Shown piece after piece: positions 2,974-14,694 of a stretch of 22,120 nucleotides of DNA. How positions within the stretch are numbered: position 1 is the first letter of the stretch; each line of letters starts with the position of its first letter. Where the stretch lies: assembly GCA_033764315.1 (NCBI GenBank), contig JANRJA010000069.1, positions 1-22,120 of the forward strand. Direction: 5' to 3'. This DNA is from Oculatellaceae cyanobacterium bins.114. Its GTDB lineage: Bacteria; Cyanobacteriota; Cyanobacteriia; Elainellales; Elainellaceae. A program made the position numbers and the translations under genes. A model generated the notes under the pieces. It was not told the origin of the DNA and ran no database searches. It saw only the letters and a program-made list of their open reading frames with translations.

Positions 2974-3046
2974 GCGGTTTTGCCTTGTCCCTTGACTTTT
3001 AGGGGTGAGGCATTTGGCAAATAAGCTTTGTCTGACCGCTAACGCG

Positions 3047-3802
3047 TTACATCAAGCCTTCTTGCTCAATTTCTTCAATGACCTGCAAGCCACGAGGGTC
3101 GCCCACTTTCAACATAGAGAGTTTGGCATCTTCGCGCACTCCCATCTCTTCATCTTCGGCAAATGCTTCAATGAGGGCATCGATCGCCGTTGCATAGACG
3201 ACATTAGACGGCAGTTCTCGACACAGTTGCCCAACCGACCAGGCACAGTTGCTGCGAACAGCGGCAATCGGATCTTGACGCAATGCCTCAATCAGCGGAG
3301 GAATTGCACTAATAATGGCGTCATAGCTCACCTCTGACATTTGGGCTAGGGCACTAGCTGCCCAGAGCCGCACGGCTGAGATGTCGGTTTTGAGGGATAG
3401 GATCAAGGGTTCCAACGAACGGCGATCGCGACAGTTGCCCAATGCCCAGACAATGCCTTTGCGGACATATCCATTCCAGTCTTGGTTGAGTTGGGTGATC
3501 AACGGCTCAACTGCATCAGAACTGGGGTTGCGCCCTAACGCGTAGGCTGCGCTCACCCGAATCAAAGGGCAGACGTCGGTCAGTAAAGTAATCAAATAGG
3601 GAATTGCCCGCTCGTCTTCTAGTTCACAAAAAGCACGAGCAGCTAACATGCGTTGTTGGTTGTCAGGCGCATCTAACAACACCAGCATCGCATCTGGATT
3701 GGGTTTTGGTACCTCTGCTGCACTGGCATCTCCCATTTTGTCTAATGGGCTTTCTAAATCCAGGTCAGCATCCAATACACTTAAGTCGTCATCATCGTAC
3801 AT
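3047..3802 (-). CDS. HEAT-repeat (PBS lyase HEAT-like) protein
   Basis: 251 aa. Repeated helical units: VRVSAAYALG-like (IRVSAAYALG), VRKGIVWALG, VRLWAASALA, VRSNCAWSVG. Acidic N-terminus. Confidence 0.92.
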   Translation of the reverse strand: MYDDDDLSVLDADLDLESPLDKMGDASAAEVPKPNPDAMLVLLDAPDNQQRMLAARAFCELEDERAIPYLITLLTDVCPLIRVSAAYALGRNPSSDAVEPLITQLNQDWNGYVRKGIVWALGNCRDRRSLEPLILSLKTDISAVRLWAASALAQMSEVSYDAIISAIPPLIEALRQDPIAAVRSNCAWSVGQLCRELPSNVVYATAIDALIEAFAEDEEMGVREDAKLSMLKVGDPRGLQVIEEIEQEGLM

Positions 3803-3865
3803 ATTGCCACTTTACAGCAGATTGGGAGACGCGGGGTGAACGGGATTCCTCCCTTTTAATGGGGA

Positions 3866-5272
3866 TTATTCACATTGTCTCAAACGCCCTAGTAATAACA
3901 CGATTTCATCTATCGCTGGGCGTACTGTTCTGACGGGTTGGTCGAAATGATTGAGGAGGATACTAAACGCCAGGGGTGGATAGTTAGGAGGATCGAGATA
4001 GCCAGAGAGAGCAGCCACTCCACTGAGTGCTCCGGTTTTGCCTTGCAACCTGTCTTGAACTGGAGTGTCTCGAAATCGATTTTGCAAGGTTCCACGCACA
4101 CCTGCGATCGCCAGAGAATTGCGAAAAACAGTTGCATTGGGCGATCGCGCCATACCTCTGAGCGTTTGCACCAATGCCTCTGGAGTCACCTGATTGTGGC
4201 GAGAAAGCCCCGACCCATCCGCCAGATCAATGCTTTGAGGATCGACTCCCAAACGACTTAAGGTGGTTTCTATTGCGGCAATGCCACTGGCTAAGCTGTC
4301 TTCGTTGGGGTTGGTTACGGTTCCGAGCGATCGCAACAGTGCTTCAGCATAGAGGTTGTTACTGTTTTGATTCGTTTCAATCAACAGTGTGGACAGGGGT
4401 TGTGAGAGCACAGCCGCCAATTCAGGCTCAGGGGTTACAGAAGGGGTCGGGGCGATCGCTGTGCCTGCAACCGTGATTTGGGTGGTATTGAGAATGCGTT
4501 GAAATCGCTGCAAAAAATATTGAGTGGGGTTTGCAACGGCACGTTCCCCAACTGCGTTTTGGTTCAAGATCAGGCTGTTAGCGGGCGCACCATAATCAGT
4601 TTGAGTGTCTGACCATTCCCAGGTGGAATTGATCAATTCACCTTTGAAATAATGATCATCCACAATCAGGCGATCGAGGCGAGTGATGCCTCGTTGACGC
4701 AGTTGTTGAGCCAGTTGTTGGAGTTGAACCTCCGTCAAACTTGGATCACCGCGTCCCACTACACGAGCGATCATCCCCGTTTGAGAGGGGACTTGATACA
4801 CCGAAGTGCGAATTTGAAAATTGGCTCCTAATCGTTCGAGGACAGCCGCCGTCGTTAAAAGTTTGGTATTCGACGCGGGAATAAAGAATCGCTGTGCTTC
4901 TTGAGCAAACAGGGTTTCCCCGGTGTCTAACCGTTGGACTAAGATGCCCCAGCGAGATCGTTGTAGACCCGGACGGTTGGCGATCGCCCCAATCTGAGCA
5001 GGGAGTTGAGCCGGACAGACGCCTGTCGCCTGGGCTGTCAGTTGGGGTTCTGGAGCAACTGATGGAGTTAGCCAGGGTTGCGCTTGAGCAGGGGCGATCG
5101 CCCAAAAACTCAAACAACTGCCTAAAAAAACACCTGTGTACCTATATCTCTGCTTTCTGGTGAAGATTGAGCGGGGGAGGGGGTGGCATCCTCCACGGGG
5201 TTGGGGCTTGTCAGAGCCACGGTCTCTAGCAACAGGTGTCTTGGCTAACCCAAACACGCACTTTACTCTCAT
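3866..5272 (-). CDS. dacB: D-alanyl-D-alanine carboxypeptidase/endopeptidase (PBP4, peptidase S13), short form
   Basis: PASNTK (SxxK), SNNLYAE (SxN), DGSGLS and GKTG (KTG) motifs. Signal-peptide-like segment ending APAQA. The start overlaps the upstream stop (ATGA, 5269-5272). Confidence 0.93.
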   Translation of the reverse strand: MRVKCVFGLAKTPVARDRGSDKPQPRGGCHPLPRSIFTRKQRYRYTGVFLGSCLSFWAIAPAQAQPWLTPSVAPEPQLTAQATGVCPAQLPAQIGAIANRPGLQRSRWGILVQRLDTGETLFAQEAQRFFIPASNTKLLTTAAVLERLGANFQIRTSVYQVPSQTGMIARVVGRGDPSLTEVQLQQLAQQLRQRGITRLDRLIVDDHYFKGELINSTWEWSDTQTDYGAPANSLILNQNAVGERAVANPTQYFLQRFQRILNTTQITVAGTAIAPTPSVTPEPELAAVLSQPLSTLLIETNQNSNNLYAEALLRSLGTVTNPNEDSLASGIAAIETTLSRLGVDPQSIDLADGSGLSRHNQVTPEALVQTLRGMARSPNATVFRNSLAIAGVRGTLQNRFRDTPVQDRLQGKTGALSGVAALSGYLDPPNYPPLAFSILLNHFDQPVRTVRPAIDEIVLLLGRLRQCE

Positions 5273-5646
5273 GAGAGCTTTTCTTCTAACGGTTTACAAA
5301 AGTCACTGATTCCCGTCTTGAGGGCAAACAGCACAATGGGAACAGCGAGTTCAACCGAGATGCCTGCTTCAGTGGTGAGCGATCGCACAGCAACGGCTAC
5401 CTGACGGGTTTCCAACGCAGCTCTAATAGTCGTTCCACACAAGACAGTGCGCCACCGTTTTGCCACGCTTTCGAGCCATTGGTCTGAGCGATCGGGTTCT
5501 TGTCCGGTTCTCAAGGCGAGTGAGATCGCGGCATCTTCTAAATCTCCATCGCAATCCTCAACCATATCAAAAGCATGTAAGGCATCTGCGTCATCGGCTA
5601 AGGCAGCGCGATATTCGACCAGTTCGTCTGCTGTCAGAATTACCAT
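5269..5646 (-). CDS. Small acidic hypothetical protein
   Basis: 125-aa ORF with ATG start and a GAG-containing SD-like sequence. It sits 20 bp after the upstream gene and has a 4-bp overlap with dacB. Confidence 0.8.
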   Translation of the reverse strand: MVILTADELVEYRAALADDADALHAFDMVEDCDGDLEDAAISLALRTGQEPDRSDQWLESVAKRWRTVLCGTTIRAALETRQVAVAVRSLTTEAGISVELAVPIVLFALKTGISDFCKPLEEKLS

Positions 5647-5666
5647 GCCTCACTCTCGGATTAAAA

Positions 5667-7010
5667 TCAACAATTATCTTCATCTAGAGGATTGTAAACC
5701 CCTCTTGAATAGTGTGATAGCATCATTATCCCTTCATCAAACCTCAACTGTGGCGATTTGCTTCGCCTATTTATCCAGTGGCACCGATTCTCTTCTGACT
5801 GTGCTTGCGAAGGCATCAATGTCGGTTGTCGATAGCGCACCCGCGATCGCACGATAAAAACGATGAGAACAACTCCAATCAACAATCCTGTACACAGGTA
5901 GTTGACCCAACTTAATTGCAATTGCCCTAGATAGTGAGAGCCAATCAAAATACAGTGCGTTACTGCCAACACCAACGCTGGAACTGCGAGTAAATGGAGC
6001 GATCGCCACAGGCGACCTAAGCGTTTCTGTGCTCCATCAAAACTGGTGCAAGCAGCAGGAGTCATACATATCAGGGCGATCGCGCCAGCAATAATACCCC
6101 ATTGATGTTGAGGCAGCATAAAAGTGAAGGCATCTAGATTCCAACCCCAACTATGTTCTAGCATGTGCAGGGTGTGCACCAGAGACAACACAAACGCACC
6201 CACCCCCAAAACGCGGCGATAGTGTAGGGGGTGTGCCCAAAACCGACTGATCGGGCGGGCGATCAACGCTAACACCAGACAGAGCAAAGCTCCATGCCCG
6301 GTGTAATCGGTCATGGTATCCCCCGTTCGCAATAGGGTGAGGATGCCAATCAATAAGGTTATCCATCCGCCCAAACGAAATAATTGACTGCGGCGATCGC
6401 GGCTCATCAGCCCTGTAAAAACGCCCACACCTAACAAGGTAGGTGCAGTCCCCAAACCAAATGCCAGCATGGTTGCACCTCCCCACCAGGGGTTGCTAGT
6501 CTCAGCCGCTTTGATCTGTGCTGCATACAAAAAACCACAGGGCACCAAGCCCCACACCAGACCCAACAGGGCAGGAGTCCACCAGTGCGATCGCAGCGAT
6601 AGTTTTAACATCAACTGACTGAGGCGATGGTGCAGCCTGCCCTGAGCTAGAGGATGGGCGATCGGCAAGTGAGGTAACAGAGTTGGGCTAATCTGAGCCA
6701 AGCCAAACCAAATCAGCAATATGCCTGTGATGATGGCCATCAATCGTCTCAAATCACTGCCGATGCCCGCCATTTGACCCCCAGCTACCAAGACTGAACC
6801 GAGTGCGCCAATGCCAACCCCCACTAGGGCATAGCTCACGATTCGCCCCACATTGAGCAGTCCGTGAAAATAAAGCTGTCTCACCCAGGAGGGCTTTGAC
6901 TCATCGCCTTGCGACAGGGAAAAAGCCGCTGTGATGGGGCCACACATCCCCACACAGTGACCAAAACTTCCCACAAAACCAAGGGCTGCGATGAGTAACA
7001 GATCTAGCAT
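5667..7010 (-). CDS. Membrane protein: DsbD_2 (TauE/SafE/UreH-like) domain fused to a ferric-reductase-like/MsrQ-like transmembrane domain
   Basis: N-terminal GHCVGMCGP and GLVPCG motifs with ~6 hydrophobic helices. The C-terminal half has RRVLGVGAFVLSLVH and TSFDGAQKRLGRLWRSLH...VTH, resembling MsrQ heme-ligand helices. ATG at 7010 (MLDLLL) is preferred over 7031. Confidence 0.85.
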   Translation of the reverse strand: MLDLLLIAALGFVGSFGHCVGMCGPITAAFSLSQGDESKPSWVRQLYFHGLLNVGRIVSYALVGVGIGALGSVLVAGGQMAGIGSDLRRLMAIITGILLIWFGLAQISPTLLPHLPIAHPLAQGRLHHRLSQLMLKLSLRSHWWTPALLGLVWGLVPCGFLYAAQIKAAETSNPWWGGATMLAFGLGTAPTLLGVGVFTGLMSRDRRSQLFRLGGWITLLIGILTLLRTGDTMTDYTGHGALLCLVLALIARPISRFWAHPLHYRRVLGVGAFVLSLVHTLHMLEHSWGWNLDAFTFMLPQHQWGIIAGAIALICMTPAACTSFDGAQKRLGRLWRSLHLLAVPALVLAVTHCILIGSHYLGQLQLSWVNYLCTGLLIGVVLIVFIVRSRVRYRQPTLMPSQAQSEENRCHWINRRSKSPQLRFDEGIMMLSHYSRGVYNPLDEDNC

Positions 7011-7138
7011 GATCGCTTTGATAACAAGCACTTCATTTTAGCGTTGAAGCGCAGGAGAGAGCGTGAGGGAAAATAGGAAGGATCAAAGATGAAATGGTTT
7101 TTGCATGCAGGAGTGAGACAGGGTAGGGTGAAGCGACG

Positions 7139-8812
7139 TTAAGGAGCGAGTTTGATCTCTTGTTGAATGGGTAAACCTTTCAGCAAGTCTCGGTCTTCGC
7201 TGACATGTGGAAGTTTTAATTGAGCTTCAGCCATGCCCTGTTGCAACATCCGTTGACGAAGAATCGCAAAGCTGCCGGGTTCTAGAATGCGAAGGCGCGG
7301 CAGTGGAATCTGGTCTCGCCGCTTGATGCCATAAAAAGTATGAACTTCTTTTAAGGTGTCATCAAACAGTTGTAGAAATTTTTTGGGGTCTTGCAGCGTA
7401 TGACCAGAAGCCAGTTCTATATTTACTAGATAGGGTGCTGGAATGGATTCTTTAGATAGTGTGAGGCAAAATTCTTCTAGACCGATGTTTAGTGTTTGCT
7501 GTAAGATTTGCATCACTTGAATCGCATGAAACTCAGTTGTCTTTTCAGTGGAAGACGACATCACTCCACCTCGACGGTGTTGAAAGATAACGAGTGGCGT
7601 CTGTTCAAAAAAACCATCGATTTTAACAACATCACCTAAGTCATAGCGATAAAACCCTGTGTAGTTGCTCATCACAATGCGATAGCGATCGCCTGTCTGC
7701 ACTTCCCACGGGAGTAGTGTTTTGGGATATTCCACATCCCATTGATCTTCAGGGATAAATTCAAAAAAACCGCTGTCGATCGCCAAAATCGAACCATCTT
7801 TATTGAAGTCTCGATGTACCCCGATCACCCCTTCTGCACAGGCATAGGTGCCGCCAAAAATAGGAACATCGCCAAAATAGTCTGGAAATCGCTCAAAGTA
7901 GAAGTTTGACGTGCCGCCTCGGGCTGTGACGATGAAGGACAGATCAGTCCAGGCATCTTTAGGAACGAGCCGTCCCTGGGTTTTTAAAATGTGGCGCAAG
8001 TGTGCGGCTCGTTCTGGCAAGGCGTGCCACTGGCGTTCTAGTTTGAGCCGCAGATCTGGCTCTAGTTTTAACCAGTGTGCAATTTCTCCCGTTTCCAGGT
8101 CGTCAATCAAGCTGCTGGCATAATTCTCTAAATAGTCACACATCTGCACGGCTAAGACTGGAAACGTTGCCGCAATGATTCTGAGGTCGGCATCGCGCAA
8201 GGCAAACAAGAGACAAATGTAATACCGAGTTGCAGTATCGGAGATTTGAACCGCTTCAAATGGATAGGCAAAAATTTGGCGATAGGCCCTATCTAACCGC
8301 AGATCACTCGTGCTTCCAGGTGCAAAGGGGATGCCTCCTTTAGTGTGCCCCAACGGATTGACCGACAGGGGAAGCAACATTTTGCCCAAGGGACGCTGCT
8401 CTCGCCTTAATGCATCTGCTGCAAATCCCATAGCGATTCGGCTGGCTTGGGAGCTACATCGACGGGTTTGCTTGGTCACGGGAATCATCTTTTGAGGACC
8501 CGTTGAGCCACTGCTGAGATTGACGTAAACGAGCGGCTCTGCTGTCAAGATATTGGTTTCACCGTCAGCCATTCGCTTGGTGTAGGGATCGTAATAGCGA
8601 TAAGACTGGACTGGCAGGCGATCGCGAAATTGCTCAATGGTTTTGATCTCAGATAGGTAGTGTTGACGGCCAAATTCAGTGTTTTGATGAGCTTGCAAAA
8701 GCGATCGCAAAAACCGCTGCTGAACGTCTTCTATCCGTTTGGTGTGGCGAATAAATTTAGCCTTTGACTGCCGAGCTAGGGTAGCCAGAAGTGACAGAGC
8801 CAGGTTAGTCAT
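7139..8812 (-). CDS. GH3 family acyl-acid amido synthetase (adenylating enzyme)
   Basis: GH3 motifs SSGSTG (P-loop-like), YACAEG and YRYDLGDVV, plus GFFEFIP. The likely start is ATG 8812 (MTNLAL); the frame is open to 8851. Confidence 0.92.
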   Translation of the reverse strand: MTNLALSLLATLARQSKAKFIRHTKRIEDVQQRFLRSLLQAHQNTEFGRQHYLSEIKTIEQFRDRLPVQSYRYYDPYTKRMADGETNILTAEPLVYVNLSSGSTGPQKMIPVTKQTRRCSSQASRIAMGFAADALRREQRPLGKMLLPLSVNPLGHTKGGIPFAPGSTSDLRLDRAYRQIFAYPFEAVQISDTATRYYICLLFALRDADLRIIAATFPVLAVQMCDYLENYASSLIDDLETGEIAHWLKLEPDLRLKLERQWHALPERAAHLRHILKTQGRLVPKDAWTDLSFIVTARGGTSNFYFERFPDYFGDVPIFGGTYACAEGVIGVHRDFNKDGSILAIDSGFFEFIPEDQWDVEYPKTLLPWEVQTGDRYRIVMSNYTGFYRYDLGDVVKIDGFFEQTPLVIFQHRRGGVMSSSTEKTTEFHAIQVMQILQQTLNIGLEEFCLTLSKESIPAPYLVNIELASGHTLQDPKKFLQLFDDTLKEVHTFYGIKRRDQIPLPRLRILEPGSFAILRQRMLQQGMAEAQLKLPHVSEDRDLLKGLPIQQEIKLAP

Positions 8813-8886
8813 GTATCGATGTTTGAGATGATGTTGGAACGACCTTATCAATTAAGAGAACTGTAAAGAAAACTGTAGTGCCGTGG

Positions 8887-10215
8887 CTATTTTTGCAAAA
8901 CCACATGGGGATACTGTTTTTCAATGCGCTCTGCCACGATCTCAGGCACAATCTCGTGGGGTGAAAAGACCACGTTTGGCTGGAGTTGCTGCAACGAGTA
9001 ATCTTGGTGCATTCTCTGAGAGCCTCCGCTGGTGATGTTGAGGAGAATGTGATCCTGTTTCTCAACGGTGCCACTGTTGACCGCTTGCATCAAGGAGGCG
9101 ATCGCCACACCCGCCGCAGGGCAAACATCAATGCCTTCGAGTTGCTCAAACAAGACTCTGGCGGCTGCCGACTCTTGATTGGATACAGAATACATTTCTC
9201 CGTGGGTGTCAACGAGTGCCTCGTAAACGCCTCCCGCAACAGCATAAGCGGGTTGTCGATTAGTCAACACTTGAGCAGAAACTTGACTAATTTGCTCTTT
9301 GGCGGTGCTTTCATCTATCCACGAAATCTCTGTGTTGCCCGCTTTCCAGGCATCTACCATTGGGCAAAAGAGTAAACTTTGAGACAGGTGAAGTTTCATT
9401 TTGCCAGTGCCAAATCGCCCATCTGCTAACAACCGTAGATTGGCTTCCCAGGCCGCAATCCCACCAGTGCCAGAGCCAACCGCTTGAAAATAGTGATCGG
9501 GGATTCGTCCTAGTGTCACCGCCGCGTCTAAAACGGTTAGTCCCATTCCGTCTCGTCGAGCCACATTTGTGACACCCCCCTCCGGGAAAAAGCCTTCCAT
9601 TTGGCTAATCAGGCGTGAAAGGGCGATCGCATCTGAGTAGTCACCGCCCTCGCCGACAGCCACCAAAAAAACGCTAGAGGGTAATTCTTCCATTAACCAG
9701 ATTGCAGATAAGCTGCTCTCTGGCACAACCAGACACAGTGGAATTTGTTCTGCGGAGCAAATATTAGCAAAGGCTCTACCCGCATTACCTGCTGAGGCAA
9801 TTACCAACGTGCGCTCATGGCCTTGAGGAACTCTTGCCAGCACAGTGGCCGCTTCTAGTTCTTTAAAGGAACAGCTTAAAAAATGAGCATCGCGCTCAGC
9901 CCAATAACCGTTGAAACTGATAAAGAGGTGGTCTAATCCAAGGTGATGGGCGAGCTTTTTACTGGTGTAGGTAATGGGCTTGCCTATAACGTTGAGCGAT
10001 CGCTCAACCGGGAGCCAATCGATAAACTGAAACAGACCGGGTAAATCACGATGAATCTCAAGTGTGTGATTGGCGTAAACGCTCTGCAAAAGAGAGGGAC
10101 GATGCTCTGCGCTACAGGTCAGACGAAAGGGGTCGGGGAGATATTCCGCTCCACATAAAACACAGCGAAGGACATATTTTGACTCGTGGAGTGGCTGTTG
10201 GTAGTTGCAAAGCAT
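8887..10215 (-). CDS. Cysteate synthase-like PLP-dependent enzyme (threonine synthase/fold type II family)
   Basis: N-terminal CxxC (CVLC). ISFNGYW..R.A....CSFKELEA containing the PLP Lys, ASAGNAGRAF, EGGVTNVARRDGMG, HYFQAVGSGTGGIAAWEA and LLNITSGG. By recall these match archaeal/bacterial cysteate synthases better than canonical ThrC. Confidence 0.8.
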   Translation of the reverse strand: MLCNYQQPLHESKYVLRCVLCGAEYLPDPFRLTCSAEHRPSLLQSVYANHTLEIHRDLPGLFQFIDWLPVERSLNVIGKPITYTSKKLAHHLGLDHLFISFNGYWAERDAHFLSCSFKELEAATVLARVPQGHERTLVIASAGNAGRAFANICSAEQIPLCLVVPESSLSAIWLMEELPSSVFLVAVGEGGDYSDAIALSRLISQMEGFFPEGGVTNVARRDGMGLTVLDAAVTLGRIPDHYFQAVGSGTGGIAAWEANLRLLADGRFGTGKMKLHLSQSLLFCPMVDAWKAGNTEISWIDESTAKEQISQVSAQVLTNRQPAYAVAGGVYEALVDTHGEMYSVSNQESAAARVLFEQLEGIDVCPAAGVAIASLMQAVNSGTVEKQDHILLNITSGGSQRMHQDYSLQQLQPNVVFSPHEIVPEIVAERIEKQYPHVVLQK

Positions 10216-10375
10216 TTAGATTAAAAGTTGGGGGAGTAAAACCCTTTACAGATATGACGGGTTCATCAAAATGACAGTTTCCGGTGAAATTGAGATAAGA
10301 CTTTTTTTGCTGTAAAGGTCTTAAGAGAAACGGTCTTAGGAGCTGCACCTGGTAAAACCTACTCCGTAATACTTT

Positions 10376-10411
10376 TGCTCTAATACCTGCTCTAACACTT
10401 GCTCTAGTACT
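10376..10411. repeat. 3 x 12-bp direct repeat (TGCTCTA core) upstream of the cysteate synthase gene
   Basis: tgctctaatacc / tgctctaacact / tgctctagtact, about 160-195 bp upstream of the ATG at 10215. Confidence 0.8.
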
Positions 10412-10692
10412 AGGCTTTTTTGGTGAAATCAGGAGTTGCTGAATTTCATTAATGATAGAAAACACAGGTAAAAAACTCGGAAAGATCAAGCATCCATTTG
10501 AGGTAGTTCTAAACGGCATTGTTCTTTAAGTTCTGCCTGGAAGTGTAGATTGGGAGACGTTGCCTCCTCCAAGATCAATGGGTTGAAACCTAGCACATAC
10601 CCACGGTCTCATCATCTATCTCCAGAGCGAACTGAGCGCGTTACTAGCATCTCAAAATTCTTTTTTATCCTTCATTCTTCATCCTTTTCTTT

Positions 10693-11214
10693 TTAGTGTC
10701 CCTCTGATTTTGTTTCACGCATCTCTCGCTCGGCTGTAAAGGCAAGTTGAGTGGAGCCAAGGGTCAGTTGTCCGGTGAGTTCTTTGACAGGTTCACCTGT
10801 GAGATTACCTTCTAGCGTTACGGGAATTGCAGCGTTTGAGGATGATTGGGCTTCAAGTTGGCAATCTGCCAGTTTTGTTGTGCCCGATAAAGTAATGGCC
10901 TGGTCTTTCCAGCGTCCCGCTAGAGATGGGTTTTCTTCGGTCAGAGTATTTGCTTGAGAGCTTGCCGTTGTTTCAGCCTCCACCAGAGTTAGTGTGCCGT
11001 TGATATAAACCCCAGACTGTTGAATCACGAGCATCAGGCGATCGCTTTCAGAGCATCCCGCTAACGGTTCACTGATCAGATAGTGACCATTGATATTGGG
11101 AGGGGCCTTTAAATGTGTCTCTCCATAGGCACTGGTAAACCGAAACAGAATAGTGACGGAGCCAATCATGGTTCCATAAAATAGCAGGGATTTGGGTTGA
11201 AAGTGGCTGCTCAT
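10693..11214 (-). CDS. Hypothetical membrane-anchored or exported protein, translationally coupled to the antiporter
   Basis: 173 aa with an N-terminal hydrophobic helix (LLFYGTMIGSVTILF), two Cys and a beta-rich remainder. The start overlaps the antiporter stop (ATGA, 11211-11214). Confidence 0.8.
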   Translation of the reverse strand: MSSHFQPKSLLFYGTMIGSVTILFRFTSAYGETHLKAPPNINGHYLISEPLAGCSESDRLMLVIQQSGVYINGTLTLVEAETTASSQANTLTEENPSLAGRWKDQAITLSGTTKLADCQLEAQSSSNAAIPVTLEGNLTGEPVKELTGQLTLGSTQLAFTAEREMRETKSEGH

Positions 11215-13367
11215 GAGGGATAGGTAGAGTAAGGAAGGATGGAAGCGAGATGTGGTGTGACCTTGCTATAACGACGGGTGATCAAGAGTGAAGAGCGACA
11301 TCTTACAGCTAATTGATCGGTGTAATAACCTAGCGTTTGTCGCTCGATGCCCCATTCGCGAGAGGCACCCGCGATCGTTAGATCCACGCCTTCTGAAGCT
11401 TCGACTGCTGCTTGCAGAAAGTCACTGGATTCCAACACCGGAAAGGTAATGCGATCGCGCAGGTCGTTGGGCAGTTGCTGCATCACGCTACGAAATTCAT
11501 AGCTCAATTCGCTGGGTTGCTGCTCGTTCGAGGCGACTCGCAAAATTGTCAGATAACAGTTGGGTTTGCTGACCATAATGCGCAACGCTAGCTCTAACCC
11601 CAGGTCATTGTGAATTCCAGCAATGTAAGGAACAAGCAATTTTTCTAATTTTTCGGGGTGGCGATCGATAAAGACGGCAACATCGGTTTTAGCGGTGCTG
11701 AGGATCTGTCCCACCCGTCCTCCTAAGCGGTTATCACTAAACGCTGGACGGTGCCATCCTACGAGAATTAAATCGGTTTGATCAATATCGGCGATCGTAG
11801 CTGTCTCTCTAGCAACGTCGTTGCCAATCCTGACAATTGGCAGAATCAGCGACTGCACTGAGGGTGGCTCAAGCGTCTGGATTAATGACTGCAACTGAGC
11901 TTGTTGTTTGGCAATGATGCGTTCTGCCTCGGCAGGCATGCTCTCAAATACGTAATCTTCATCCAGTTGAATCAAGCTCAGGGGATGCACCACAGCTCTT
12001 TGGGGTTCAGTGCCAGCGATCGCCACCGCGAGTTGTAGCAACCCTTGTTGGGTATCAGGATTCGCAACAGGCACCAAAATGCGGTAAGTCATTTCAGGGT
12101 CGGTTGATACCTTTGTTGTTTCTGAGGGTTCTACTAAATCTTGCCGAATCAAGTGTTTAGCATAGGTCCACTCTAGTAAAGGCGAGGTCATAAATGTGGT
12201 CACTAATGCCATAATCACCAGCATCGTAAACAACAACGGTGAGATGACCCCCAGACTCAAACCAATGTTGAGCACAATTAATTCCGTCAAACCGCGTGTA
12301 TTCATCAACCAACCCAGGGCTGAGGCTTCTCGCTGTTGTAGCCCACAGACGCGGGCGGCGACATAGGTGCCAATATACTTTCCGCCGATCGCCACCAACA
12401 GCACTGCCCCACACAGCAGCCACAAGCCAGGGGTGTTTAACAGACCAATTTGGGTACGTAAGCCGCTATAGGCAAAGAAAATTGGCAACAAAAAAGTGAG
12501 AACAAAATCTTCTGTTTTGAGGGCTAGTTCGCGGGTTAACCCATCGTTTTTGGGCATCACTGCCCCTAACAAAAAGGCTCCAAAAATTAAGTGAATGCCA
12601 ATCAATTCCGTGATTAAGGCAGAGGCGACTACGCCCATGTAAATGCCTGCCAACACAAACTGGGTCAACCTACCCGTGCGATCGTAGTGCTTTGAGAGCC
12701 GTTTTAAGAACGATCGCCCCACTGTCACCATAAACGCGATGTAGACGGCTGAAAGCAGTAATGTGGGGAGTGCCCCAATCATGCTATTGGTGCGAGTGAC
12801 GGCGATCGCTGCGGCTAACAGACACCATGCCGTTACATCATCCACGGCAGCACAGGTCAGAGCCAGAGTGCCCAACCGACTCCCCTGCAAATTGTTTTCA
12901 GTAATGATGCGGGCTAGTACCGGAAAGGCCGTAATGGACATGGCCGATCCTAAAAACAGTGAAAAGGCGGTGAACGAGACACTGTCGTTCGATACCAAAG
13001 GATAGAGCAGCAATGCCAGTAACGCACCCAATGAAAATGGCACCACAATACTGACGTGAGAGGTCAAAACGGCTACTTCTAATTGCCCCTGAAGATATTT
13101 TGGATTTAGCTCTAAGCCAATCAAAAACATGAAAAAGATCAGTCCCACTTGCGACAAGATATTGAGAAACGGAATCGTCTCTGGTGGGAATAGTGCGGCT
13201 GCTACATCAGGGGCAATTAACCCAAATAAAGAGGGACCCAGCATGATCCCGGCGACGATCTCACCAATCACCAGGGGTTGTCGCAGCCAACGAAAGCCCA
13301 AACCGACTAAACGAGATAAGCCGATCACCAATAGAACTTGTAACAAGACGAGAACAATGGTTGACAT
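11211..13367 (-). CDS. Cation:proton antiporter, CPA2 family (NhaS4/CHX-like), with C-terminal universal-stress-protein-like domains
   Basis: RQPLVIGEIVAGIMLGPS, SITAFPVLARI, AAVDDVTAW, FGAFLLG and LMNTRGLTELIV motifs. Soluble tail begins RILVPVANP. Start placed at ATG 13367 (MSTIVL) because the upstream 52 codons translate a low-complexity tract. Confidence 0.93.
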   Translation of the reverse strand: MSTIVLVLLQVLLVIGLSRLVGLGFRWLRQPLVIGEIVAGIMLGPSLFGLIAPDVAAALFPPETIPFLNILSQVGLIFFMFLIGLELNPKYLQGQLEVAVLTSHVSIVVPFSLGALLALLLYPLVSNDSVSFTAFSLFLGSAMSITAFPVLARIITENNLQGSRLGTLALTCAAVDDVTAWCLLAAAIAVTRTNSMIGALPTLLLSAVYIAFMVTVGRSFLKRLSKHYDRTGRLTQFVLAGIYMGVVASALITELIGIHLIFGAFLLGAVMPKNDGLTRELALKTEDFVLTFLLPIFFAYSGLRTQIGLLNTPGLWLLCGAVLLVAIGGKYIGTYVAARVCGLQQREASALGWLMNTRGLTELIVLNIGLSLGVISPLLFTMLVIMALVTTFMTSPLLEWTYAKHLIRQDLVEPSETTKVSTDPEMTYRILVPVANPDTQQGLLQLAVAIAGTEPQRAVVHPLSLIQLDEDYVFESMPAEAERIIAKQQAQLQSLIQTLEPPSVQSLILPIVRIGNDVARETATIADIDQTDLILVGWHRPAFSDNRLGGRVGQILSTAKTDVAVFIDRHPEKLEKLLVPYIAGIHNDLGLELALRIMVSKPNCYLTILRVASNEQQPSELSYEFRSVMQQLPNDLRDRITFPVLESSDFLQAAVEASEGVDLTIAGASREWGIERQTLGYYTDQLAVRCRSSLLITRRYSKVTPHLASILPYSTYPS

Positions 13368-13705
13368 AGAAGAAAAAATGAGGAGTGAAGAGAGAAAAAA
13401 ATACGGAGTGGAGGATGAAGCAGGATAAAAAAAGGAGAAGAGAAGAAAGCGAAGAGGACAGCAGGTAGAGATTAGAGATATGTCGGTTAAAGTCTGACTG
13501 TCAACCTTCTCACCCATCTGCACATCAAAGTGAGACTAGTGTACACGGCACTTTAGTCACAGGCAGGCAGGAACAAAGGCAAAACCTGGATTGACACAAA
13601 CGTTGAGCATCGTTGGAGATTGCAGTTGTCGGGTGGTGTCAGCGACAGCGTAACGCTCTCCATGATTTCTCTGGTAAAAGTTTTTATTTGCTATGGTTTT
13701 ACTTT

Positions 13706-14560
13706 TCACTCTTCACCCTTTTTTCGATAAGGTGTGCCGTTGTCCCAGGGAGCGATCGCCCATCCCTGTTGTTGACACTGTTGCTTAACTTCTGGTTCAT
13801 GGTGAGCAGCTACAAACAAGAGTACTCCACCTTCTGAGCCATCATTTCGATTCAAAGCAGCGGCGATCGCTTCAAAGGGTTGCAGGTGATAGCCATTCCA
13901 GCCCAAAACAGGGTAAGTGTCTCGCACGATCATCAGCGATCGCTGTGCACCTTTAACAGTGCCCGCCAACGTCACAAAGTGACCTACACTCCAATCGGGT
14001 GCAGGAGGTTCAATCGGGGTTCCTTGCAAATAGGCGATCGCCCGTCCTAAATTTAGCCGCGATCCCCAAAAGTGTCTCGTCTGAACGTTACATAATGGAA
14101 CAGTTTGCCAATGCGAGAAGGTGTGACAAAGGTCGATCAGGGTTTCCAGGTGAGCGGCTGTCCAGGTGGTTTTGAGCGGGATCAAGGTGTATGCAGCTGA
14201 GGAAGCTTGCACCGTAGCGGCCAGCAGTCCTGGGATTGAAGTGCCCCCTAACTCTGGAGCACAGGTTGGCAAGGGAACGGCATAATCTTGCCGAGAACTG
14301 GCACCAGTGGGCACCCATTGTTGTGGATCATCCCCCATCGGCAGAACCGAACCAGCGAGTTGCCCTAACCGAGCAGGATCAATGTGGCTCACCTCATATG
14401 CCTTGAGCAAGGTCGAAATCCAGTAGGGGCCACATAGGTTGTCTGGTTGCTGACCCGCTAATTGGTGTGCTTCTATTAAGCGGAGTGAACCAGGAAGCCA
14501 CTGAATCCACTCAGTGCATTGAGACAGGTCAGAATGAGTTGGTGCTAAAGGATTCATCAA
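13706..14560 (-). CDS. Hypothetical protein with papain-like (C39/phytochelatin-synthase-like) Cys-His-Asp signature
   Basis: 284 aa with QQPDNLCGP (Q-x4-C-G), VGHFVTLAG and IVRDTY motifs in the canonical order. Confidence 0.75.
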   Translation of the reverse strand: MMNPLAPTHSDLSQCTEWIQWLPGSLRLIEAHQLAGQQPDNLCGPYWISTLLKAYEVSHIDPARLGQLAGSVLPMGDDPQQWVPTGASSRQDYAVPLPTCAPELGGTSIPGLLAATVQASSAAYTLIPLKTTWTAAHLETLIDLCHTFSHWQTVPLCNVQTRHFWGSRLNLGRAIAYLQGTPIEPPAPDWSVGHFVTLAGTVKGAQRSLMIVRDTYPVLGWNGYHLQPFEAIAAALNRNDGSEGGVLLFVAAHHEPEVKQQCQQQGWAIAPWDNGTPYRKKGEE

Positions 14561-14694
14561 GGGTTAAGAGTCTGAGCCAATTCTGGTAACAGCATCACAA
14601 TCGCCTATTTGCTCTGATAAATCTACCGTTTCCCTGTAAATTTGTTGCACAACTGCAAGAATTAGGTTTGGGGCGATCGCTTCGCTAAACCTTC

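Follow-up and report, generated by a model that had tools for sequence, protein, structure and literature searches.

A linked cysteate synthase and GH3 ligase gene pair in an Oculatellaceae cyanobacterium: a candidate two-gene route to N-acyl-cysteate

The DNA analysed here is a 22,120-nt window, contig JANRJA010000069.1 of Oculatellaceae cyanobacterium bins.114 (GCA_033764315.1); all coordinates are positions within it. On its minus strand lie a gene for a cysteate synthase-like enzyme and, directly downstream, a gene for a GH3-family acyl acid amido synthetase. Together the two are a candidate pathway to an acylated sulfonated amino acid, N-acyl-cysteate. The cysteate synthase gene (8887..10215, ATG start) encodes a 442-amino-acid (aa) pyridoxal phosphate (PLP) enzyme of fold-type II, with threonine synthase (ThrC) ancestry and a catalytic lysine, Lys118. 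The GH3 gene (7139..8812) encodes 557 aa from an ATG at 8812. Its open frame extends over 7139-8851, which would give 570 aa from a TTG at 8851. The ATG at 8812 is most likely the true start, because all eight aligned homologues begin at Met14 of the longer frame.

The spacer between the genes (8813..8886, minus strand) is 74 nt long, or 35 nt if the TTG is used, and has no terminator-like site on the coding strand. The 477 bp 5' of the cysteate synthase gene (10216..10692, minus strand) are the presumed promoter region and hold no credible gene in the open reading frame (ORF) list. The original prediction described two co-directional genes 74 bp apart (35 bp with the longer GH3 start) behind an intergenic region of about 480 bp; these coordinates and distances are confirmed. 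In a scan for promoters and terminators, counts do not exceed the shuffled expectation. No Rfam family reaches its gathering score in the window and no riboswitch is found there; the sole Rfam match in the upstream region is a chance-level microRNA (E 0.65). G+C content over the gene pair is about 0.49, similar to the remaining window. The window contains 40 copies of the HIP1 sequence (GCGATCGC), where 0.24 would be expected. Sites had been noted in both cassette genes, and the count is three in each.

The gene at 8887-10215 encodes a member of the cysteate synthase family, not ThrC. On the NCBIfam equivalog model TIGR03844 (cut-off 324.9) the enzyme reaches 506.6 bits; ThrC models give 25-77 bits, the best being 76.5 against a cut-off of 303. 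It also matches Pfam PF00291. The best match in the Protein Data Bank (PDB) is 9k3c/9k3o, titled 'Cysteate synthase' (E 1.3e-122, residues 12-430); threonine synthases rank next, none with an E value better than 1e-8. The TIGR03844 cut-off is passed by just one of the 14 control genomes, that of Methanosarcina acetivorans. Two true ThrC genes are present elsewhere in the cyanobacterial genome and score 341.4 and 336.2 bits on TIGR00260 (cut-off 167.1). All 30 aligned cysteate synthase rows, and the genome's own ThrC, have Lys118, which lies in an SFKE motif. The glycine-rich loop that holds the PLP phosphate, G247-S248-G249, is also invariant in 30 of 30 family rows; both elements are identical to PDB 9k3c in the alignment.

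A tree of 30 family members was rooted on the genome's own ThrC, which is very distant on a very long branch. The window synthase falls in a bacterial clade, separate from the Methanosarcinales/Methanoperedens group, to whose members it is 44-51% identical. It clusters with the synthases of three other loci that share its GH3-linked layout (type A, below; support 93). The sister clade is linked instead to decarboxylase, TauD-methyltransferase and methyltransferase genes. Both the comparison of models and the phylogeny, in which the enzyme groups with archaeal and bacterial cysteate synthases, bear out the name given to this gene in the original prediction. Public pipelines have already named more than a hundred cyanobacterial homologues 'cysteate synthase'. 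A threonine synthase-like PALP gene beside GH3 at another locus (L114) passes a ThrC model (175.4 bits, cut-off 167.1), and its position is treated as coincidence.

The downstream gene has all three GH3 domains above gathering: PF03321 (265.1 bits), PF23571 (81.0 bits) and PF23572 (66.1 bits), with a cut-off of 23.6 for each. An alignment with JAR1 (PDB 5ech; E 2.6e-34) covers the entire protein. Three nucleotide-binding motifs are named for GH3 enzymes in the available text of PMC12493201. In the alignment to JAR1 they read SSGSTGPQK, YACAEG and YRYDLGD and are conserved in the family; the second is a variant of YGSSEG. The core residues S114, G115, T117, G118, K121, E340, R402, Y403, D404, G406 and D407 are at least near-invariant over 53 cyanobacterial GH3 rows. 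With Lys118 of the synthase, these motifs agree with the earlier description of both genes as catalytically intact. The clade of GH3s linked to cysteate synthase is marked by 11 specificity-determining positions, including A177, S182, D183, L186, T229 and H346.

The same genome has a second GH3 gene on another contig (C77, locus L093: 5175-9644); the two GH3s are 59% identical. It is flanked by a gene for a 531-aa FAD-oxidoreductase-like protein and by one for an OlsC/LpxO-type hydroxylase, which scores 266 bits on the OlsC model, below its cut-off. The pairing of GH3 and hydroxylase recurs in three other genomes (G017, G158 and G014). The second locus looks like an aminolipid-type locus that is independent of cysteate.

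The two genes are absent from a close relative. Window positions 3000-14600 were compared by BLAST with a genome of the same genus (G621), which is 100% complete and has no synthase match, and the junction sequences were read. The relative's C12:383274-385019 aligns to window 5269-7051 and its C12:385087-387849 to window 10693-13432, so that the flanks are conserved side by side. Between them, 67 bp replace window 7052-10692. The content of this 3.64-kb indel is exactly the two genes and the upstream region, including the presumed promoter. The cassette (7052..10692) is an accessory module of patchy distribution whose two genes have been gained or lost together. At the cassette edge, about 30 pyrimidine-rich nucleotides (10658-10690) have four other matches in the relative, at 90-97% identity, and are probably a dispersed repeat of low complexity.

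Different genes flank the cassette. Directly downstream on the minus strand, 5667-7031 encodes a 454-aa fusion of a DsbD_2-type thiol-disulfide membrane domain to a ferric-reductase/MsrQ-like haem domain; this gene is conserved in the relative and is therefore outside the cassette. On the other side, 11211-13523 (minus strand) encodes a 770-aa CPA2 cation/proton antiporter with a C-terminal universal stress protein domain. Just downstream of the antiporter gene is one for a 173-aa protein without a family match (10693-11214), the start of which overlaps the antiporter stop.

Linkage of the two genes was surveyed in a phylum sample and a class sample of 401 genomes each. In the phylum sample, GH3 is present in 72 genomes and cysteate synthase in four; in each of the four, GH3 lies no more than 2 kb from the synthase. 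In the class sample, cysteate synthase is present in 27 genomes (26 of these above the cut-off), and tblastn places GH3 within 2 kb in all 27. These 27 loci include two cut by contig ends (L149 and L166) and one divergent pair (L164), and the linked genomes span eight family codes. In one genome (L162, G700; 4988-6668), an intact cysteate synthase gene is followed by a GH3 gene broken up into four short ORFs, either a pseudogene or a fault in the assembly.

A pattern-based search of named genomes gave 48 cysteate synthase loci. Twelve are cyanobacterial or uncultured (57-68% identity), three of them with GH3 directly downstream. Among the other 36, from archaea, Binatia, Spirochaetota and Nitrospirota, none has GH3. 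After three named duplicates of class-sample loci are dropped, linkage is seen at 28 of 37 distinct cyanobacterial loci. The pairing exceeds chance, and the linkage foreseen for other genomes recurs. A metagenome scan with the GH3 protein found one locus (L122, 53% identity), with no cysteate synthase within up to 3.5 kb on each side.

Other neighbours of cysteate synthase were seen in this survey. In Richelia, Symploca and Moorena bouillonii (L015, L017 and L018), the synthase gene is accompanied by a group II PLP decarboxylase gene and by genes for two methyltransferase-type proteins, one of 220 aa and one fused to a TauD dioxygenase (up to 806 aa). These synthases branch together as a separate clade (support 100). 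These clusters may lead from cysteate via taurine to methylated or hydroxylated sulfonates. A Binatia locus (L022) has a phosphoadenosine phosphosulfate (PAPS) reductase gene three genes downstream of cysteate synthase, and a Nitrospirota locus (L057) has a linked gene for a thiamine pyrophosphate (TPP) enzyme. Near one cassette of the window form (L165, G491) there is a gene for a TauE/SafE-family sulfite or sulfonate exporter.

The cassette occurs in three forms. In type A, the window form, synthase and GH3 are directly adjacent and further neighbours differ between genomes. At the 15 other type A loci with whole ORFs on the same strand, gene order is the same and gaps range from overlap to about 215 nt, measured from longest-ORF starts. 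In type B (G248 and G548), the order is synthase, DedA/VTT membrane protein, GH3 and group II PLP decarboxylase. In type C (G250 and G707), it is synthase, Asp/Glu-type racemase and GH3, with an extra methyltransferase gene before GH3 in G250 only. Among NCBIfam models the type C racemase matches the cysteate racemase CuyB best, with 123.6 bits against a cut-off of 190; on the amino acid racemase model TIGR00035 it is above the cut-off.

In a tree of the 53 cyanobacterial GH3 rows, 21 linked type A rows and one unlinked row form a single clade, with a support of 100 in the SH-like approximate likelihood ratio test (SH-aLRT). The type B and type C GH3s occupy two other places. The pair therefore travels as a unit, and there are at least three lineages of GH3 in which the association has arisen or been retained.

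These observations suggest a pathway of two steps, encoded by two genes that are presumably co-transcribed. In the first, the PLP enzyme would eliminate phosphate from O-phospho-L-serine to leave an aminoacrylate intermediate, to which sulfite would add to give L-cysteate; this follows from membership of the cysteate synthase family. The sulfite would come from assimilatory sulfate reduction. In the second, by analogy with the GH3 mechanism and with the bacterial enzyme OlsH, the GH3 enzyme would use ATP to adenylate a carboxylic acid, and the amino group of cysteate would displace AMP to form an amide, N-acyl-L-cysteate. If the acid is a fatty acid, the product would be a sulfonated lipoamino acid with two negative charges and no phosphorus, either a lyso-type aminolipid or a surfactant.

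That the product is some acyl-cysteate is probable. For the narrower statement that the two genes make N-fatty-acyl-L-cysteate, we lean only slightly towards yes. The original prediction of a minimal two-gene route to an acyl- or aryl-cysteate is supported by the genomic evidence; a fatty acid is more likely than an aryl acid as the acyl donor. The cassette as a whole is well supported as a candidate GH3-type N-acyl amino acid synthase with its own supply of a sulfonated amino acid.

The choice of a fatty acid draws on what is known of OlsH and on the company that GH3 genes keep. According to the available text of PMC12493201, OlsH converts a fatty acid, with ATP, to N-acyl-ornithine, and its authors expect homologues that use other amino acids (see also the review PMC12971839). 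Neighbours within two genes were surveyed at 27 cyanobacterial GH3 loci without cysteate synthase. FA_hydroxylase genes are found at 10 of the 27 and genes for major facilitator superfamily (MFS) transporters at seven. Mpo1-like, Asp/Arg-hydroxylase family (OlsC/LpxO-type) and Rieske oxygenase genes are each found at four, PlsC-type acyltransferase genes at three, Cupin_8 at two and a GDSL lipase at one.

The three PlsC-type loci (L101, L102 and L104, in G092, G328 and G008) have GH3 directly beside an acyltransferase of PF01553. This is the layout of a two-step aminolipid pathway, in which N-acylation would be followed by O-acylation. At a further locus (L016), a hydroxylase encoded upstream of cysteate synthase scores 114 bits on the OlsE model, below its cut-off. 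The window cassette has no linked gene for a second acyltransferase. The alpha/beta hydrolase gene at 854-1750 was tried as an OlsI-like second acyltransferase and rejected; it scores 48.5 bits on NF052614 (cut-off 385), and generic hydrolase models score higher.

Several observations weigh against a route to N-fatty-acyl-cysteate. Firstly, a Pfam scan of the 18 window ORFs found no lipid genes, and FA_hydroxylase lies near only 2 of 22 type A cassettes. Rieske/VanA-type oxygenases, which would fit an aromatic acid, are found beside one type C locus as well as the four unlinked GH3 loci. Secondly, on the OlsH model NF052613 (cut-off 620) the window GH3 reaches 93.9 bits, which excludes it from the OlsH orthologues, though it may still act like OlsH. 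The positions that mark the linked clade include no obvious sulfonate-binding basic residue and none common to types B and C.

Thirdly, linkage has exceptions. Nine of the 12 named cyanobacterial loci lack GH3 in the flanking DNA examined. In three of these nine, its place is taken by genes for decarboxylase, TauD-methyltransferase and methyltransferase, so cysteate synthase has uses in other routes as well. The one unlinked row in the type A clade of the GH3 tree (L117) comes from a genome that is 99% complete and has no cysteate synthase match (G346). That gene (6375-7997) encodes 540 aa, so is shorter, and has a long branch, an odd composition and an IS240-type transposase fragment beside it; it may be a decaying remnant.

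The best-placed alternative keeps cysteate and changes the acid. GH3 would join an aromatic, hydroxy or other small acid to cysteate, and the water-soluble sulfonated conjugate would serve as a signal or chelator-like metabolite, or as a tag for detoxification or export. The nearest solved relatives of the window GH3 are plant enzymes that use jasmonate, indole-3-acetic acid (IAA) and benzoates. The Rieske (4 of 27) and MFS (7 of 27) genes beside unlinked GH3s, the recurrence of Rieske/VanA_C oxygenases, the MFS or EamA genes beside several linked loci and the lack of a lipid gene in the window all fit such a conjugate. This is nevertheless unlikely: OlsH, the sole characterised bacterial GH3 found in the literature, uses fatty acids (PMC12493201, available in part), and the commonest GH3 neighbours are fatty-acid hydroxylase, OlsC-like and PlsC-like genes.

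A second alternative changes the amino acid. Cysteate would first be decarboxylated to taurine, racemised to D-cysteate or turned into some other derivative, and GH3 would then acylate this compound to give, for example, N-acyl-taurine. Types B and C suggest as much for their own genomes, with a group II decarboxylase gene directly after GH3 in the former and a CuyB-like racemase gene between synthase and GH3 in the latter. These extra enzymes are sensible only if the synthase product is passed on as an amino acid, which makes cysteate or a close derivative the probable GH3 substrate. The window itself contains neither racemase nor decarboxylase, and the GH3s of types B and C are in other clades than the window GH3. 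Neither PF00282 nor the type B decarboxylase has a match in the window genome, which is 90.7% complete; the search covered no other decarboxylase families. Since there is no PF00282 decarboxylase in the genome and no adjacent racemase, L-cysteate itself is likely to be the acceptor here, and prior conversion is quite improbable for the window cassette.

It is slightly less probable again that the two genes are neighbours without a shared pathway, or that the synthase-like enzyme takes a nucleophile other than sulfite, so that no cysteate conjugate is made. Each gene does occur by itself, cysteate synthase at the nine cyanobacterial loci given above and GH3 in 68 of the 72 GH3-positive genomes of the phylum sample, and the function of the cyanobacterial synthase is predicted from its sequence. 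Against this stand adjacency in 27 of 27 genomes over several families, the single clade of linked GH3s, the gain or loss of both genes together and a TIGR03844 score far above the cut-off.

Finally, cysteate could serve as the acid, with GH3 adenylating its carboxylate and joining it to another amine to give a cysteate amide or peptide-like product; linkage does not tell which GH3 substrate cysteate is and some other GH3 enzymes conjugate polar acids, but this is very improbable, as the amino acid is the acceptor in OlsH and in all solved GH3 relatives compared, and cysteate is an analogue of aspartate, a classic GH3 acceptor.

No paper describing the synthase-GH3 pair was found in the literature searched, which did not extend to subscription journals; this agrees with the original prediction, which knew of no description in cyanobacteria. 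Nor was any paper found that contains both cysteate synthase and GH3, or acyl-cysteate. The search found no study of a cyanobacterial cysteate synthase, only a mention in a reference list beside cyanobacteria. To our knowledge, no aminolipids are on record in the cyanobacterial phylum. Ornithine lipids are given as unreported in cyanobacteria in the available text of a review (PMC12971839).

A wider proposal can be made tentatively, and we rate it somewhat below an even chance. Filamentous cyanobacteria would use a portable cassette of two genes to make N-fatty-acyl-cysteate, a sulfonated aminolipid of a class not seen before. The head group would differ in sister cassettes, with D-cysteate made by a racemase and taurine by a decarboxylase. 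The many orphan cyanobacterial GH3s with OlsC-, OlsE- and PlsC-like neighbours would form a family of ATP-dependent aminolipid synthases.

If N-fatty-acyl-cysteate is indeed made, it would be a lipoamino acid of a new, sulfonated kind and, after sulfoquinovosyldiacylglycerol (SQDG), a second lipid with sulfur and without phosphorus. The route would be simple and transplantable, requiring two genes, with phosphoserine, sulfite, an acid and ATP supplied by central metabolism. Cysteate synthase would have a role beyond methanogen cofactor synthesis and Bacteroidota sulfonolipids, and production of organosulfonates by cyanobacteria would join the sulfur cycle. Bacterial GH3s, of which only OlsH is characterised in the literature found, would gain a second class of substrate. 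Acyl-cysteates are anionic surfactants and could play a part in membranes when phosphate is scarce, in gliding or in interactions with other organisms. Bacteroidota sulfonolipids matter in interactions of the last kind.

The predicted pathway shares parts with several known systems. The plant GH3 enzymes JAR1/GH3.11, GH3.12 and GH3.5/GH3.6 have the same three-domain architecture and nucleotide motifs. Plant GH3.5 and GH3.6 form IAA-Asp; aspartate, which has a carboxylate where cysteate has its sulfonate, often serves as the acceptor. The window enzyme is distant in sequence and has YACAEG in place of the plant YGSSEG as motif 2. Unlike the plant enzymes, it is prokaryotic and is encoded in an operon-like pair, and its substrate is probably a lipid, not a hormone.

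The phosphoserine route to coenzyme M in Methanosarcinales, whose cysteate synthase was reportedly described by Graham and colleagues in 2009, uses an enzyme of the same TIGR03844 family. The window organism is an oxygenic phototroph, and the window has no sulfopyruvate decarboxylase or other coenzyme M gene. The Pfam scan of the 18 window ORFs found no coenzyme M genes, no capnine acyltransferase (PF00155) and no TPP decarboxylase, as had been noted for the first two. CuyB of Bilophila wadsworthia (PMC11193023, available in part) is the best NCBIfam match of the type C racemase, which supports cysteate as a metabolite that is passed on. CuyB is catabolic; the type C match is below the cut-off (123.6 against 190 bits) and the window has no racemase.

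The capnine/sulfobacin pathway of Bacteroidota also begins with cysteate synthase and phosphoserine, and there too cysteate is the head-group precursor of a sulfonated lipid. Its enzymes, in the available text of PMC11211663, are cysteate synthase (Cys/CapA), cysteate fatty acyltransferase (CFAT/CapB) and ketocapnine reductase. The second step of that pathway is a PLP-dependent C-C condensation in which the carboxylate is lost to give a sphingoid-like base. In contrast, the second step in the window would be an ATP-dependent amide formation in which the carboxylate is kept, and the window has no PF00155 protein.

The OlsH/OlsI system of Singulisphaera acidiphila (PMC12493201, available in part) is alike in its GH3-type, ATP-dependent N-acylation of an amino acid alpha-amino group with a fatty acid. 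OlsC- and OlsE-like homologues are also found beside cyanobacterial GH3 paralogues. The window pair differs in having no OlsI next to it; the hydrolase at 854-1750, the only alpha/beta hydrolase in the window, is 5.4 kb away. It differs too in its acceptor, which would come from a dedicated adjacent synthase and is predicted to be a sulfonate rather than ornithine. The cassette thus appears to resemble OlsH/OlsI in the amide step and the capnine pathway in the supply of cysteate, and it is a member of neither.

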